Origin: an uncultured Acidobacteriota bacterium
Lineage (GTDB): Bacteria > Acidobacteriota > Terriglobia > UBA7540
DNA length: 64,000 bases
Direction of reading: 5' to 3'
Assembly (NCBI GenBank): GCA_963804995.1
Contig: CAWDSK010000005.1
Span: forward strand, 128,001 to 192,000
The number at the start of each line of letters is the position of its first letter. Position 1 is the first letter of the stretch. Below the pieces are notes generated by a model. It was not told the DNA's origin and ran no database searches. It saw nothing but the letters and a program-made list of their open reading frames with translations. Shown here piece after piece: positions 3,929-9,682 of the stretch. The translations under genes were made by a program, and so were the position numbers.

Positions 3929-4330
3929 AATATGCTCCTCTGAGGGGCCGGTAAATACTAGTCAATCAAGTCAATCAAGTGACCACGTAATAAATAGGTG
4001 CGACGCGCCAAACTCACTTGCCGGTTGGGCACCAGTACGAACCTCGTGCGATTCTTTATTTTGCATTGCGCTGAGCGTGTTCCCTCAGCGTTACCTGTCG
4101 GGCTTTAGCAATCCACGCTTTCGAGGTTAGGGTTTTCTTTTTGCGATCCTGAAATCACTACCGTAGGGCTTTTTCAGGAACCAAGCAATTGCGTCCCCTT
4201 GCTTGCGGCGACACTTCCATACGACCTGTGAGTCAGGTGAACCTGAGGGACTCCCCGTTCAAGCCACCCGCCCCAGGGGCGACACGCTATTCCAGGCGGG
4301 ACGAGCGGCAAGGCTACCAATCTACCCAAT

Positions 4331-4359
4331 AGGCTATGATTCTTTTCGACACTTGTCAA
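4331..4359 (-). promoter_or_regulatory. Sigma70-type promoter upstream of a ~390-nt leader
   Basis: TTGACA-17 bp-TAGCCT on the minus strand. Confidence 0.5.
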
Positions 4360-4543
4360 GGGCCGGAAGTTCAGCTTAGACAGGCTTATATCCGGGGTGG
4401 GTCTGGGGTTACGGGTGCTGGTGCGGGAGGGAGGCAGGGGTGGCCGGAAATGTTTAGCGGCGGCAGTAGCCGCACACCGTGGCGTGCCCCTACGACGATT
4501 TCTTCGCAGATGCTTTGCTCTTCAGCCTTGGCCAGCGGCCGGA

Positions 4544-5080
4544 CTAGTCATCACTCTTCTTGGGTGTTGATAACAAGTCCGACGGCGGCTCTGTCAGCGG
4601 AGAGTCCTCGCTGTGGGGTTCGGTTGCCATTCCGGCCATCTGGATAATCGATTCGGCCAGCAGATGCAGGCCATCGGCAGCCACCTTGTTACCCTTCATT
4701 TTCATGGCACTCAATTGCAGAATATTCTCCACGGTTTCTTTATAGAGGGTGCGGGTGTCAGGCGGTAGGGAACGCAAGAAAGCCGGGTCGAGGTAGCGTC
4801 GTTCCAATTCCGCCTGGCCGGGTGGCGTCTGCTTGCCCCGTGAGACATCTGTGGCTGGCGCGCCGGGTGGCGCTGTGGTGAATAGGGCACGGGTTTCCGC
4901 GTCGGGGCACAATTCCAGCAATCGCCGGAGACGATAGCCGCGTGGGGTGGAGCGCCCGGATTCCCAAAATTGCACGGCACTTAGGCTACAACCCACCCGA
5001 GCGGCAAGCTCCTGCTGAGTAATCTGTAGCCTTTCCCGAAGTGACGATACGGCACGCGGCTCTATTCTGGCAAATCTCAT
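4544..5080 (-). CDS. XRE/HTH_3 transcriptional regulator (CI-like position)
   Basis: LRERLQITQQELAARVGCSLSAVQFWESGRSTP helix-turn-helix; GAGG RBS; no S24 peptidase motif seen. Confidence 0.85.
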   Translation of the reverse strand: MRFARIEPRAVSSLRERLQITQQELAARVGCSLSAVQFWESGRSTPRGYRLRRLLELCPDAETRALFTTAPPGAPATDVSRGKQTPPGQAELERRYLDPAFLRSLPPDTRTLYKETVENILQLSAMKMKGNKVAADGLHLLAESIIQMAGMATEPHSEDSPLTEPPSDLLSTPKKSDD

Positions 5081-5090
5081 AATTTTCCTC

Positions 5091-5118
5091 TTGACTTACT
5101 AACGATTAAGTATACAAT
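5091..5118 (+). promoter_or_regulatory. Rightward promoter in the AT-rich divergent gap
   Basis: TTGACT-16 bp-TACAAT between head-to-head HTH genes. Confidence 0.5.
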
Positions 5119-5136
5119 AAAGCCTATTAAAAGGCG

Positions 5137-5430
5137 GTGAACAAAGTTCACCGACGTATAATGACGCAACTTAGCACAAAACGCCAGACAAAAAAACTTG
5201 ATCGCGACACCTTGCTTTCCATCCGCCGCACGCATGGAATGGCCGCCGCCATTGCCCGTGTGGCGGGCGTCTCACGTGGGTTTGTCAGCGAGGTGCTAAC
5301 TGGGCGGAAGCGGCCCAGCGCGCGCTTTTTGGCGGCCTTACCGTGTGCCTTTGACCTGGTCACTTTGCAGTCGGGGGCACGCCTAGACGAGCTGGAAGCA
5401 TCCAGCCGAGAAGACGAGCAGAAGAGGTGA
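5137..5430 (+). CDS. Cro-like HTH protein (alternative start 5161)
   Basis: AAAIARVAGVSRGFVSEVLTGRKRPS HTH signature, divergent from the XRE gene. Confidence 0.75.
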   Translation: MNKVHRRIMTQLSTKRQTKKLDRDTLLSIRRTHGMAAAIARVAGVSRGFVSEVLTGRKRPSARFLAALPCAFDLVTLQSGARLDELEASSREDEQKR

Positions 5431-5438
5431 CCTGCGTC

Positions 5439-5660
5439 ATGGCTGAACAGAACAAAGTCGAGTTCGGTATCACGGTTAGTCATCGGCTCCCCGAAAGTTT
5501 GGTGGCCAGCGTCGACCAGTGGGCGAATAGGACTTGGCGCGATCGTGCCAAGATCCTATCGGCGATATGTTGCCGCGTCCTGGAGATGGTCCGCCAAGAG
5601 GGGGGCTTTAAGCAAGATCTAAGTGATGTCCTACGCCGTTTACGTCTCGATCCGGCATAA
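5439..5660 (+). CDS. Ribbon-helix-helix-like small DNA-binding protein
   Basis: GAGGTGA RBS; ITVSHRLPESLVASVDQWANRTWRDRAKIL fits a strand-helix-helix CopG/Arc pattern. Confidence 0.6.
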   Translation: MAEQNKVEFGITVSHRLPESLVASVDQWANRTWRDRAKILSAICCRVLEMVRQEGGFKQDLSDVLRRLRLDPA

Positions 5661-5805
5661 AAAAATTTTCCGGCAGTTTGTCTTCTATGTCTATTTCGTA
5701 TTTAAAGCTTACAGGGGTTGATCCCCTGCACACCTCGAGGTGTGTCCAGTCGTCCTTCATCATCCGGCTGCGCGTCACTGACGCGCAGAAGGTAGGTGAG
5801 GGATT

Positions 5806-5862
5806 ATGCGGAGCCAACCGCAAGGCGGACCCCATCCGCCTATGCCTTGGCCGCCACGTTAG
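5806..5862 (+). CDS. 18-aa proline-rich peptide MRSQPQGGPHPPMPWPPR (unannotated)
   Basis: AGGTGA Shine-Dalgarno 6 nt before ATG; in-frame stop just upstream; 7 Pro including two PP pairs. Confidence 0.55.
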   Translation: MRSQPQGGPHPPMPWPPR

Positions 5863-5877
5863 GGCGGCTCGCACGCG

Positions 5878-5908
5878 CCGGGGCCTCCCGGCATTCGGGA
5901 GGTCCCGG
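5878..5908 (+). promoter_or_regulatory. Hairpin sequestering the RBS of the downstream membrane-protein gene
   Basis: 13-bp stem CCGGGGCCTCCCG-gcatt-CGGGAGGTCCCGG (one G-U); 3' arm contains GGAGG and the G of the GTG start; no U-tail. Confidence 0.65.
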
Positions 5909-6438
5909 TGAAATCGTATGCCATCTATTTCGCTGCCTGTGCTTTGCACTTTGTGCTGCTTTTCCTCTTCAGCAACCAACAGTTATATCAGCGTTACCCT
6001 TTCTTTATGCTCTGGCTGCTGGCCGAACCCTTTTCCAATCTCGCGCTCTGGGTACTCTATTGGTCGAAGGAATTTCCCCTGATGACCGCCGCCAAGAATG
6101 GCTTGGACATCTTGTGGTACGGCATCCTGGCCGCCGCCCTGGTGCAAGCCTGCCTCGCCTGGGGAGACCCCATCGGCGGCGTTCTCCGCCGAGGGATCAT
6201 TGCCTTGGTGCTTCTCGCCGTGATCGGTCGTGAAGCCGGAGGAATGAAGCTGGCGGGAGGGTTCGGAGTGGCTCTCGCCACCGCCATGAACCTGGCCTAT
6301 ATGGCTCCCACAGTTTATCTGGTGGCAAAGCTTTCCGATATACGCCTGGAGCGTATTCCACTTTGGCTGCGAGAAGACGTTCCTTGGGTGAGCGCGGCAC
6401 GTCAAGTCTGGGGTTACGCCCATTCCCTGCTCAGTTGA
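5908..6438 (+). CDS. Hypothetical integral membrane protein (~5 TM)
   Basis: Five hydrophobic segments, LYQRYPFF loop after TM1, GGAGG RBS. Confidence 0.8.
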   Translation: MKSYAIYFAACALHFVLLFLFSNQQLYQRYPFFMLWLLAEPFSNLALWVLYWSKEFPLMTAAKNGLDILWYGILAAALVQACLAWGDPIGGVLRRGIIALVLLAVIGREAGGMKLAGGFGVALATAMNLAYMAPTVYLVAKLSDIRLERIPLWLREDVPWVSAARQVWGYAHSLLS

Positions 6439-6524
6439 TGGAAAGGTCAGAATTTTAATCCTTAGTTGCAGTGATTTTGTCATGATTACCATGTATACAA
6501 TGTATCACAATTTACTAGGCACCC

Positions 6525-6959
6525 ATGAAGACCTCTAGCGTCCCGAGCCAAAAGATCGTTGAACAAGTCAGTCCCAATGAACCGGGATGCAACGTGTTGC
6601 CTGGCCACCAACGCGGCAGGCTGACAGCGCCACTCCGGTTCAATTCCCACCATTACTCAGCGAGAAAGCACTGGGCAGAACGGCCCACCTCCCATCCTAT
6701 ACCGACGACGGCACCCACATTTATACCAGCCTTCTTCTTTTCCCCTCATCCTCCTGCCACCCTACCGTTCCGCCCAGCGCTTTCTCGCCGAGAAAAACAA
6801 ATATCTCAAGGGATCAAAGACGCCGCGCCATCCACGCTTGGGCTCTTCAGCTCCTGCTCTGCCTCTTGCGAGGCGCAAAGCCAAGGCCCAGGACGGATCC
6901 CTGCGCCGGCCATCCCCAGCCCCCAGCGAAAGGTAGTTCATGCGACTCCTGATTGTTGA
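6525..6959 (+). CDS. Hypothetical Pro/Ser-rich ORF (doubtful)
   Basis: ATG after an AT-rich segment, overlaps the next start; no recognisable domain. Confidence 0.3.
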   Translation: MKTSSVPSQKIVEQVSPNEPGCNVLPGHQRGRLTAPLRFNSHHYSARKHWAERPTSHPIPTTAPTFIPAFFFSPHPPATLPFRPALSRREKQISQGIKDAAPSTLGLFSSCSASCEAQSQGPGRIPAPAIPSPQRKVVHATPDC

Positions 6960-7460
6960 AGACAACGAGTATCTCGCGGAAGTCACCGCGCAACTTCTAC
7001 ACTCCTTCGACCGGCAAGCGCGGCGAACTCGAAGAGCATTACCATTGCCGGTGACCTTGAGACAGCCATCTACTTCCTTCCCGAGCACGATGCTGTCCTC
7101 TGTGACGGGCGGTTTCCAATTTCTCTTAACTCCCGCTTCATCGCGGAAGAGTGGGATGTGGTCCGGCACGAAGCCGACCGCCGAGGCATCCACTTTGTCC
7201 TCTACAGCGGCTGCGTCCCCGCTCTTCTTTCCGCGCGCGAGGCCAACACTCCGGCGCTTGCCAAACCCGCGCCCATAGAGGAAATCTATGCGGCAATTAC
7301 CGGTCCGAAGTCGGGTACCCACGGTCCGAAGTCAGGGGATGACACCTTGGGAATGGGGGGGAACTTGATTGCACGGAGTTCAGTGCTTGCGTGCGTCGCG
7401 CCAAGCCAGCCACAGGCAGCCATCGGCAGTCAAATCAAGCTGATTTCTGAGGGCGGATAG
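6940..7460 (+). CDS. Stand-alone response regulator receiver domain, frameshifted at ~7026-7033
   Basis: MRLLIVEDN.. joins in another frame to ..DAVLCDG..FVLYSG..LAKPA; acidic pocket, Asp acceptor, Ser and Lys all present. Confidence 0.75.
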
Positions 7461-7482
7461 CTCGGAGCTAGAAGGGGGTTTT

Positions 7483-7725
7483 GTGCACCAGGCCTTCGAA
7501 CAATACTGTGAAGTAGTCAGGGCAAAAGCGGCCCAACTCGGAGAAGAAGCCGAGATGCGCGCCCGTTTCGAGCATCTTCGGGCCTTCAATTTTGGCCGCT
7601 CGATTCAGCACCTCGAAAACTCCCAACACGAGTTGCGGATGCGCTTGTGCTGGCTGCTGTTGGGGGCGGCAATGGGCGCTGCCTTGGTGGCGGGATTCCT
7701 GCACATGTTGGGTCGCGCACCCTAA
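7483..7725 (+). CDS. Hypothetical protein with C-terminal TM helix
   Basis: Helical N-terminus plus LCWLLLGAAMGAALVAGFL; AGGGGG RBS. Confidence 0.6.
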   Translation: MHQAFEQYCEVVRAKAAQLGEEAEMRARFEHLRAFNFGRSIQHLENSQHELRMRLCWLLLGAAMGAALVAGFLHMLGRAP

Positions 7726-7950
7726 GGTTTAGGACCCACCCTGAACTTTTGAAGTCTTAAGCCTGCTCAGCTCATTCGCAGGCAGTGTTGAATAGGCCGG
7801 TACAGTTGAACCAATCGAAAAAGCTGAACCATCAACTTCTCAACTCTTCAATTCCATCGAAGCGGCGCCTCGAACGCCAGTCAAAATGCGAGGTTCCAAC
7901 CGCTCGATCGCTAAATCTCGAAATACTCGAATTTTTGCCGGAGGGGAAAA

Positions 7951-8175
7951 ATGAGATGTCCAAAGTGCGGAGCCATTACGGAAGTAAGACAGAAACGCGG
8001 GCCCTTTCGCGACCGCCGCTGCGTTAATCCAGCCTGCATTTTTGGTTTTACCACCTGCGAGAACCTCGCGACTCAGAACGAACACCAGCGCATAAACGCC
8101 AAGGCCCTGGCGCGGCGATGCGAAGAAGGCGTTTATTCACCTGCCGAGCTGCAGAAGGCAGCAGCCGCGGGGTAG
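7951..8175 (+). CDS. Zn-ribbon protein (NrdR-N / Ogr-Delta-like)
   Basis: GGAGG RBS; MRCPKCG...RRCVNPAC...FTTCE. Confidence 0.7.
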   Translation: MRCPKCGAITEVRQKRGPFRDRRCVNPACIFGFTTCENLATQNEHQRINAKALARRCEEGVYSPAELQKAAAAG

Positions 8176-8338
8176 GAACATGGACGTGGTTGATTGAAGG
8201 CCTTTGATTTGCATGAACCGGGGATCGCGAGAACAGCGATCAGCGGTCAGCAATCAGTTTGGGCTACTCTCCATACGCCGTCTGAGCGCATGGCAGATTG
8301 CACAACTCGCACCAGCCGCGATGTCTGCGTGGACTTCT

Positions 8339-9682
8339 TTAGGGAATGGGAAGCTGGGAGCGGTCCTGCCGCCGGGCGACCTTTTTTTGCAGCCTCTCCA
8401 GGCGGTGCGCGAAGCGGGGTGTGTGCTTTTGTAGGGCCAGGGCTTGCCCCGGCTCCAGGCCGGCCCCAGGGGCGGCTCCACCTGCCAGACGTTCGAGGGC
8501 GGCCAAGGTAAATTCCATCGCGCCTTTCGGATCGCGCCGATGGTGCTCGTAATGAATTGCCAACTCCTCCAAGGCTTCGAGAGCCAGCGGGGACGGCCGC
8601 CGGGTGAGCTCGAGCCAAGTCTCTACAGCCAATTCGTGTCGGTGCTGCCGCTTGTACTGCAAGGCCAACTGGTGCAGCGCTCGGGCCGCGATTTCTTCCG
8701 GCAAACCGCCGGAGAGGGCCCGCTGGCAGGTCTCAACCGATTGCTGCCTTGAGCCCGCGGTTTCAAACATGCGGCTGAGGCTGAAGAGATCCACGGGAGA
8801 GTCGAGGGTGCTCGCGCCCGCGTCGCCAATGGCTCGGGCCAATTCCACGGTCACGGCGGCGAGGGTGATGATATCCAGCGCATTGTGGTAGAACACGGGT
8901 TGGAGGCCGCGCGCGTCACCGGTGCGCAGGTAATCAAAGTAAATGCCGGGGATTTCTGAGCCGGCCACGTCGCCTTCGCGGCCGATTCCCAGCACCGCGC
9001 TTTCGAGGTCGGTCAGCTTGCAACTCTCCAGGCGCAGTTTCCAGAGGCGCCGGGCTGGGTGCAGGGCATCGAGGTGCAGCAGTCTCGCGAAAGGCGACCG
9101 CAACCGCGCCAGGGCGTAGCGGGTCTCGAGCAGCGGCACGTCGAACGTCTTTCCGTTGTAGGTTACCAGACCCTCGCAGGCCCCCAGCACTTCCGCCAAG
9201 TCTTGCAGGATGGCCTTCTCTTCCGGATAATCCCGCAAAAAGAACTGCCTCACTACGAATTGAGTTCCTTCGACCGTGCCGATCCCGATCAGGAACGCAC
9301 AGGTTCCCGTTCCACCTGCGAGGCCTGTGGTTTCGGTGTCGAGGTAAACCAGCCGCTCGGGCGCGGGCATGGCGGCCTGGGGGAAAAGCAGATTCAGCGG
9401 GGTTAAGTCGGCCGTCGAGATGTCACCGATGCGCAGCTTGCCGTAGGGCCTGCCGAAGGGAAAGGCCTGCCGGGCCACAAAGTATTCACCCCAATCGTTT
9501 TTGGCCAGGGCGCCATCCACGTACTCCTCGATGCCTTTGGCCACTCGCTGCGCGGGGAGCTGGCGCGGTTCGGGCGGCTGGTCCAGTCGACGCAGGTATT
9601 CGAGTGTTTGCTCGAGCTCGCGATCAGGGTCGCGAGGCTGGGCGGCCTTCTTAAGCTGGCGAAGTTTTTGATCGAGGTTCAC
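8339..9682 (-). CDS. RNase_H_2 (DnaQ-like) exonuclease with TPR C-terminus, YprB/MrfB-like
   Basis: YLDTETTGLAGG, VTYNGKTFD, HNALD motifs; EELAIHYEH TPR region; GTG start at 9682 preferred. Confidence 0.88.
   Translation of the reverse strand: MNLDQKLRQLKKAAQPRDPDRELEQTLEYLRRLDQPPEPRQLPAQRVAKGIEEYVDGALAKNDWGEYFVARQAFPFGRPYGKLRIGDISTADLTPLNLLFPQAAMPAPERLVYLDTETTGLAGGTGTCAFLIGIGTVEGTQFVVRQFFLRDYPEEKAILQDLAEVLGACEGLVTYNGKTFDVPLLETRYALARLRSPFARLLHLDALHPARRLWKLRLESCKLTDLESAVLGIGREGDVAGSEIPGIYFDYLRTGDARGLQPVFYHNALDIITLAAVTVELARAIGDAGASTLDSPVDLFSLSRMFETAGSRQQSVETCQRALSGGLPEEIAARALHQLALQYKRQHRHELAVETWLELTRRPSPLALEALEELAIHYEHHRRDPKGAMEFTLAALERLAGGAAPGAGLEPGQALALQKHTPRFAHRLERLQKKVARRQDRSQLPIP

Follow-up and report, generated by a model that had tools for sequence, protein, structure and literature searches.

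The window, by which we mean the whole stretch of 64,000 nucleotides analysed here, comes from an uncultured Acidobacteriota bacterium and carries a compact block of small genes and predicted RNA structures. The block is preceded by an XRE-type HTH repressor-like gene on the minus strand (4544..5080), cI-like by context, which matched Pfam HTH_3 (E 2.5e-9) and repressor/regulator families of PHROG. Divergent from it lies a small HTH gene (5137..5430, plus strand) that matched HTH_31 below the curated cut-off (E 2.9e-5) and the HTH DNA binding protein family phrog_3642 (E 1.7e-7); judging by its position, we take it to be cro/ner-like. Next on the plus strand come a gene for a 73-aa ribbon-helix-helix (RHH)-like regulator (5439..5660), missed in an earlier sequence-only reading of this DNA, a micropeptide gene (5806..5862) and a gene for a membrane protein (5908..6438; 176 aa, GTG start). 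The micropeptide, MRSQPQGGPHPPMPWPPR, has 18 residues and runs from an ATG at 5806 to a TAG stop at 5862, and its Shine-Dalgarno (SD) sequence is AGGTGA (5794-5799); this SD and the short ORF had both been recognized in the sequence-only reading. Two predicted hairpins on the plus strand complete the block: hairpin 1 (5752..5804), which pairs the peptide's own SD, and hairpin 2 (5876..5910), which a spacer (5863..5875, plus strand) separates from the peptide stop. A consensus promoter scan of the window gave no plus-strand promoter near the micropeptide, no tRNA genes were found within the window, and at the Rfam gathering score the leader had no match, with four sub-threshold matches elsewhere in 4000-8400.

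Several other genes surround this block. Downstream lies an ORF that we labelled response-regulator-like by eye (6940-7460), with a frameshift near 7017-7026 relative to the intact homologue of locus L001. A one-helix small membrane ORF (7483-7725) and a four-Cys zinc-finger ORF (7951-8175), the latter presumably Ogr/Delta-like, are conserved in 8 and 9 related loci. On the other side, an IS1595-family transposase gene (938-1957; Pfam E 1e-37) is found with other gene fragments nearby.

The micropeptide gene proved to be a real and conserved gene. Homologues of 6-18 aa are present in 37 of the 39 distinct leaders: among loci with an intact 5' end, 40 carry the micro-ORF (37 distinct leaders, window included) and two, L002 and L073, possess an intact membrane gene without it. 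Left out of these counts were L014 and L017, where the contig ends inside the peptide, and loci with a partial membrane gene. A complete peptide without the membrane gene was not seen among the loci examined. As a control, an SD-led micro-ORF with Trp-Pro was found upstream of 1 of 1804 control genes, compared with 36 of the 39 distinct homologous leaders. The peptides comprise the window type (n=3), a W-P-R/K-P-P type of 11-18 aa (n=19), an M-x-P-W-P type of 6-8 aa (n=14) and a single peptide devoid of Trp (L071), and these types track the clades of the membrane protein. Trp-Pro is thus shared by 36/37 peptides. The sequence-only reading had proposed a search for short GG-P-x-PP ORFs followed by a covarying stem; the ORFs and compensatory stem changes were indeed recovered, but GG-P-x-PP turned out to be local and the conserved core is Trp-Pro. 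The pN/pS ratio, taken from pairwise counts that are mutually non-independent, was 0.18 over the WP[RK]PPxP core (19 leaders), 0.35 over ten codons of that type and 0.40 over the xPWPx core (14 leaders). In the Pro and Trp codons only the third position varies, the first two being fixed, while Arg is coded by CGN as well as AGR across the peptides. The micropeptide is thus selected as a protein sequence.

The position of the core within the peptide is bimodal: 17 peptides have their Trp 2-4 residues from the end, 19 have it at 9-11 residues, and within the window's own clade Trp has moved between the two positions. There is at most one Cys per peptide. A signal peptide is not visible, in agreement with the earlier reading, as the peptides are 6-18 aa long without a hydrophobic stretch. 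A small hairpin (5849-5869; z -2.54, 4/200 shuffles) spans the peptide's last codons and stop, and looks conserved within the window clade.

Two explanations of the peptide can be weighed at this point. It might be an N-terminal extension of the membrane protein, produced by stop-codon read-through, since in the window the micro-ORF is in frame with the membrane gene, without a second stop between them, and 27/37 leaders are in frame. However, an uninterrupted in-frame continuation is limited to 15/37 leaders, the frame differs in 10, and the stop codon varies (TAA in 19 leaders, TAG in 17, TGA in 1); we consider read-through extremely improbable. Alternatively, the released peptide might bind ribosomes in trans, like proline-rich antimicrobial peptides, and tune host translation while the phage develops, the membrane gene being a mere co-transcribed neighbour. 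The peptides are Pro/Arg-rich, and the window's, at 18 residues, is as long as apidaecin, which binds the exit tunnel and arrests termination (PMC7544508). Nevertheless, peptides of the 6-8 aa class are almost without basic residues, and it would remain unexplained why the peptide is so tightly linked to a single membrane family, so this possibility appears very improbable.

The membrane gene is predicted to be locked by hairpin 2, whose 15 pairs cover GGGAGG (5897-5902) and GTG (5908-5910). The 13-bp stem described in the sequence-only reading, 15 nt past the peptide stop, was found as claimed (core 5878-5890/5896-5908), and the pairs 5877-5909 and 5876-5910 extend it to 15. That reading was also right that the GTG is involved, but the whole codon is predicted to be paired, not its first base alone. 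The fold reached -35.9 kcal/mol (z -3.84) and none of 200 shuffles was as good. Opening the membrane-gene ribosome-binding site (RBS) would cost 21.4 kcal/mol, whereas 400 control starts of this genome all cost less (median 8.3). When the 37 leaders were folded singly, hairpin 2 formed in nearly all of them, with loops from a few to more than 40 nt, and G-C, A-U and G-U pairs exchange at two positions after the SD. An alignment of 14 relatives in the same register had 94.5% of its cells paired, which 5/500 shuffles equalled, while slid registers gave 41-65% pairing; double changes were found at only one pair of this alignment. The covarying stem that had been anticipated is therefore conserved and shows compensatory change.

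The placement of hairpin 2 relative to the peptide stop is constrained as well. The distance from the stop to the conserved CC of the hairpin is 10-19 nt in 34/37 leaders (15, 11, 16 and 13 nt in L008, L027, L029 and L042, respectively), and it is 33 nt in three leaders of one lineage, which carry an inserted hairpin. The start-to-stem distance, unlike the stop-to-stem distance, spans tens of nucleotides, and the stop is separated from the membrane-gene start by 37-90 nt. A ribosome protects mRNA to +17 from the P site (PMC6238534), which corresponds to about 11 nt past a stop codon placed in the A site. In our folding model, which is static and does not include active unwinding, a footprint reaching 0-15 nt past the stop left the median opening energy at 14.5-15.6 kcal/mol (unblocked 15.4), and footprints of 18, 21 and 24 nt lowered it to 12.1, 10.0 and 8.8 kcal/mol; the level of control genes would thus require a modelled footprint 18-24 nt past the stop. 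The last Pro-Pro ends about 21-39 nt before the stem (two leaders set aside). It follows from this model that a ribosome paused on Pro-Pro cannot passively open the stem and that a terminating ribosome just abuts it. Stems at the edge of a terminating ribosome have been reported to block re-initiation (PMC7518266), and the stop-stem geometry fits either such an insulator (PMC7518266) or coupling by a sliding ribosome (PMC12548453).

These results bear on the earlier suggestion that the leader is an EF-P-dependent Pro-Pro stalling sensor. Its proposed step, in which a Pro-Pro-paused ribosome opens the stem, fails in the model because the last Pro-Pro is 21-39 nt away and footprints up to 15 nt leave 14.5 against 15.4 kcal/mol. 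The sensor itself is weakened, since Pro-Pro is absent from 14/37 peptides and the conserved core is Trp-Pro rather than GG-P-x-PP. The EF-P polyproline sensor is a weak candidate, consecutive prolines not being family-wide (23/37) and the stall site being, in this static model, too far from the anti-SD arm.

A broader cis-acting leader deserves more attention. Here, the nascent Trp/Pro peptide would slow or arrest the ribosome at or near the stop, and the held or sliding ribosome would open hairpin 2; this is a real possibility, although we would sooner bet against it, and we hold in equal regard its corollary, that the membrane protein would then be made only in some translational or metabolic state. 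What keeps it close behind the reading we prefer is the stem, which is anchored to the stop while the start-to-stem distance varies, and which is too stable for free initiation. A parallel is provided by CutF, which is restricted to action in cis and opens a stem that shields the SD between the two genes (PMC9973294). Arrest peptides with Trp and Pro also exist, the selected peptide FXXYXIWPPP and SecM being examples (PMC11669330); the long class of peptides carries IWP, with its Trp 9-11 residues from the end in 19 peptides. At the peptide-less locus L073 (4299-5114), the last RHH codons can pair, as seen by eye, beside the SD and start of the membrane gene, which from its sequence looks like an ordinary coupling layout. 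On the other hand, the 14/37 peptides without Pro-Pro measure just 6-8 aa, Trp occurs at two alternative distances from the end, the spacer of one lineage extends to 33 nt and includes an extra hairpin, and the peptide offers no sensing domain or signal sequence of the kind that CutF needs. Moreover, the footprint would have to reach 18-24 nt past the stop, against the roughly 11 nt protected (PMC6238534).

Hairpin 1, which the sequence-only reading had missed, folds at -34.6 kcal/mol (z -6.34). In the 8 leaders of the window clade its consensus was -30.5, with double changes in 2/19 pairs, and in 28 other leaders double changes affect 6/9 consensus pairs, with a consensus energy of only -3.8. 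Its 5' arm carries a TA-nnn-T, -10-like box 40-51 nt before the ATG in 28/28 short-peptide leaders (5.4 expected from shuffling), and several of these leaders have a TTGACA/TTTACA-like box 17 nt further upstream. If transcription started after the box, the median cost of opening the peptide RBS in short-peptide leaders would fall from 14.5 to 7.2 kcal/mol, while that of the membrane RBS would stay at 15.1, costlier than the peptide RBS in 28/28. Thus, a transcript starting inside hairpin 1 would expose the ribosome site of the peptide and keep that of the membrane gene closed, and from this model the peptide is predicted to be made in excess over the membrane protein. The box is absent from the window and from 7/8 leaders of its clade, so for the window the step that opens the peptide RBS is borrowed from relatives; on a read-through transcript the window's peptide RBS would cost 18 kcal/mol to open.

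Upstream of hairpin 1, three degenerate 9-nt units (5679..5705, plus strand) are candidate operator repeats, weak in the window and clearer in relatives. Self-identity at period 9 ranges over 0.26-0.56 across the short-peptide leaders (n=28) and is 0.27 for the window. Between the RHH stop and hairpin 1, L018-L044 and L068-L072 carry AT-rich arrays with this 9-nt periodicity (self-identity up to 0.56). Such arrays are candidate operators for the RHH-like protein, which may control the promoter of the peptide-membrane pair. The RHH-like gene lies upstream of the pair in most loci, has a homologue in 26/29 loci compared and occurs in 34/137 genomes. For the window's protein we obtained no Pfam/HMM match; its model reached pLDDT 74, with the strand region below 50 in the monomer model, and its best structural matches were mostly RHH proteins (CopASO, PutA52, TacA, NikR, omega, Arc), at a Z of only 3.0-3.9. 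At L091:6167-6957 in G074, a distant RHH homologue is followed by a winged-helix-like ORF, recognized by eye, in place of the peptide and membrane genes.

The membrane protein was modelled with a pLDDT of 83.5 as five long helices, predicted to be transmembrane, plus a C-terminal helix, and the bias of Lys and Arg towards loops 1 and 3 and the C-terminus predicts an N-out/C-in topology. Near-invariant positions in 58 members are N/Q44 (55), D67 (50), R108 (50), N128 (57) and P134 (58), buried polar residues among them, and a motif after helix 5 is nearly invariant. The conserved side of the protein is its cytoplasmic face, though the peptides diverge. In three structural searches the top matches were mostly transmembrane domains of GPCRs, the best with Z 9.1 and rmsd 3.4 over 138 aligned residues. 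This likeness is non-significant (Foldseek E 0.058 or worse, and 0.35 in PDB), its Z lies under the 13 that is the tool's common level for helical bundles, de novo bundles scored 8.4 and 8.2, and five helices are here compared with a seven-helix bundle. Searches of Pfam, NCBIfam, PHROG and PDB sequences gave no match above chance for the membrane protein; hits to DUF1616 (Pfam) in 8/58 members, at best E 3e-4, were judged no better than chance. We found in it no TPR family match and no catalytic or DNA-binding output domain.

The distribution of the membrane gene is narrow. A profile search detected the gene or its remnants in 36/137 genomes of the order, all of one family, and no credible match in 400 other genomes drawn from the phylum, where two weak matches looked unrelated. 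In the window's genome (G000) the gene is single-copy and we found no paralogous peptide-membrane pair. Locus L014, an Acidobacteria record, holds a homologue with 52% identity; the ESM Atlas returned only hypothetical clusters, the nearest mostly from Acidobacteriota; 50% representatives gave 26 matches, from which one 1098-aa protein was excluded as spurious; and IMG/VR and phage records contained neither a homologue nor the leader motif. Damaged copies of the membrane gene occur at loci L044, L072, L024, L032 and L077: G056 and G078 have a frameshift in the gene behind an intact leader, and only C-terminal remnants of it were seen in G016, G019 and G029.

Some copies of the pair are embedded in prophages. 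At L071, a divergent pair, whose membrane-gene copy (a 33-type member) was found at E 3e-37, stands directly before genes for a transposase (phrog_310) and a DNA transposition protein (phrog_296), in a prophage that also has a terminase gene. We take the gene order at L071 to be that of a Mu-like prophage, and together with the transposase and transposition matches this leads us to label the prophage Mu-like. In G024, G056 and G077 the pair has terminase, portal and major head genes as neighbours. In G000 the corresponding lysis, head and tail genes are located on the same contig at a distance of about 165 kb; a transposase homologue was not found in G000. A Mu-like lysis/head/tail cluster without a detected transposase was seen at G000:C5:301000-327500 and in relatives (L078, L079 and L081); in some relatives it adjoins the same host genes, and in G000 portal matches come in two pieces. 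This cluster could be a domesticated, gene-transfer-agent-like element. Within the flanks fetched from three genera, no phage genes were shared around the RHH-peptide-membrane trio. G018 and G007 have kept the flanking regulators and lack both the peptide and the membrane gene, while in G034 the two stand together, away from the RHH gene; the peptide and membrane genes are thus lost or moved as a unit. Both genes are conserved along with the two hairpins, and they constitute a pair, as yet in no catalogue, that belongs to Mu-like prophage remnants of a single Acidobacteria group.

Such an arrangement recalls toxin-antitoxin modules. The omega-epsilon-zeta layout offers a parallel. The membrane protein could be harmful, neutralised by the peptide from the cytoplasm, with the RHH protein repressing the operon. 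The gene order of regulator, small gene and locked membrane gene is in line with this, as are the predicted excess of a peptide that would need no export, the presence of antitoxin DNA-binding domains and omega among the best RHH structural matches, and the joint deletion in G018 and G007. It is difficult to reconcile with the intact membrane genes that stand without a peptide in L002 and L073, with the lack of a toxin family match for the membrane protein in Pfam, NCBIfam and PHROG, and with a cytoplasmic face that is conserved although the peptides diverge. We therefore find such a module quite unlikely, and similarly so the proposal that its harm would serve abortive infection, superinfection exclusion or killing.

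The reading that we prefer, at somewhat less than even confidence, is that the peptide, once free of the ribosome, serves the neighbouring five-helix protein as a ligand or signal; the hairpin likely keeps that protein scarce. The sequence-only reading had left two alternatives, a coupling or stalling sensor and a peptide ligand made in excess over its membrane partner; these remain the two leading readings, of which the excess ligand fits better than EF-P/Pro-Pro stalling, the binding itself being something that we infer, together with the action of the peptide in trans on the membrane protein. Hairpin 2, immediately ahead of the terminating ribosome, would serve as an insulator that passes little termination-coupled translation. 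A protease-resistant peptide might then get to the protein's outer face, either through cell lysis or via an export route, and might inform a Mu-like prophage about lysis nearby or phage density.

We favour this ligand over the cis-acting leader because the distance between the Trp-Pro core and the stop is variable, because many of the peptides are too short and without Pro-Pro, and because the stem lies beyond the passive reach of the ribosome. A shifting Trp would probably be poorly tolerated by an arrest peptide held in a fixed register in the tunnel. The selection on the amino-acid sequence of the peptide speaks for the ligand as well, as does the predicted exposure of the peptide RBS while the membrane RBS stays closed. 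The tracking of clades by peptide types and the joint loss and movement of the pair are also counted here, although they would be expected of a cis leader too, and so are the conserved buried polar residues with the GPCR-like top matches and the L071 copy before Mu-like transposition genes. Against the ligand we count the lack of a signal peptide, a dedicated exporter and an output domain, the -10-like box missing from the window, and the peptide-less membrane genes of L002 and L073. In addition, a stem that is anchored to the stop while peptide length varies from 6 to 18 aa suggests a mechanical link to termination, and with 21 kcal/mol required to open the window's membrane RBS, independent initiation should be rare, so that some activator would be needed. 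The ligand and the cis leader are not mutually exclusive and both can hold. A further-reaching picture, which we think unlikely, would be a new kind of phage peptide communication in Gram-negative soil bacteria, in which a leaderless Trp/Pro peptide of 6-18 residues is made in excess by a Mu-like prophage, released by lysis and perceived by an RNA-locked, five-helix, GPCR-like receptor, with clade dialects and later domestication by the host.

No description of the cassette was found in the open-access literature, and neither the membrane protein nor the regulator nor the leader RNA is represented by a family in Pfam, NCBIfam, PHROG or Rfam. With as few as six codons, the peptide genes fall far under annotation limits, yet selection on their amino-acid sequence is clear, and the membrane family that they adjoin is uncatalogued. 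Should the peptide be a cis leader, the family would amount to a naturally occurring set of Trp-Pro arrest peptides, 6-18 aa in length, coupled to a defined output stem. Should it be a ligand, a phage would here signal through a membrane receptor by means of a peptide devoid of a signal sequence, beyond the Firmicutes systems treated in one account (PMC10075063). At about 700 bp, the cassette is within reach of reporters and synthetic peptides.

Several known systems share parts of this layout. Structures involved in translational coupling and termination likewise place a stable stem past a stop, covering the next RBS, but they differ from the present stem, which is conserved with compensatory changes and preceded by a micro-ORF under amino-acid selection (PMC7518266, PMC12548453). 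The com-mom operon of phage Mu also combines a Mu-type phage, a small upstream product and a hairpin holding the next GUG start; however, Com binds RNA as a zinc-finger protein and Mom is a DNA modifier, whereas our peptide has no such fold and its target is a membrane protein (PMC6483171). WPPP and SecM arrest peptides have Trp and Pro motifs in common with ours, one class of which carries IWP, but relative to those arrest peptides there is no PPP, no FXXYXI context and no fixed distance between motif and stop (PMC11669330).

The two closest parallels are CutF and the RRNPP/arbitrium systems. In the cutFOG operon of Rhodobacter capsulatus, an upstream ORF ends in a Pro-rich motif with nearby basic residues, acts only in cis, and is followed within 100 nt by an SD-shielding stem for which active unwinding has been proposed (PMC9973294). 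Our leaders also have an SD-shielding stem less than 100 nt from the stop, but CutF (DUF2946) is exported by Sec and bears a CxxxC metal motif, whereas peptides of 6-18 aa have neither, as judged from sequence, 14/37 homologues are without Pro-Pro, and the target is a prophage membrane protein (PMC9973294). As in RRNPP/arbitrium, a small-peptide gene lies beside a putative receptor gene on a mobile element (in 37/39 leaders here) and its variants track clades (PMC10075063). Those systems belong to Firmicutes and use a Sec signal and a cytoplasmic TPR receptor of 250-500 aa, while the present ones belong to Acidobacteriota, pair a peptide often below 10 aa with a five-helix membrane protein of 170-190 aa (176 aa in the window), and show by eye no basic-hydrophobic leader that would indicate Sec/PptAB export (PMC10075063). 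On this analysis, the cassette appears to lack the defining features of both RRNPP/arbitrium and CutF-like leaders, yet it resembles each of them in layout.
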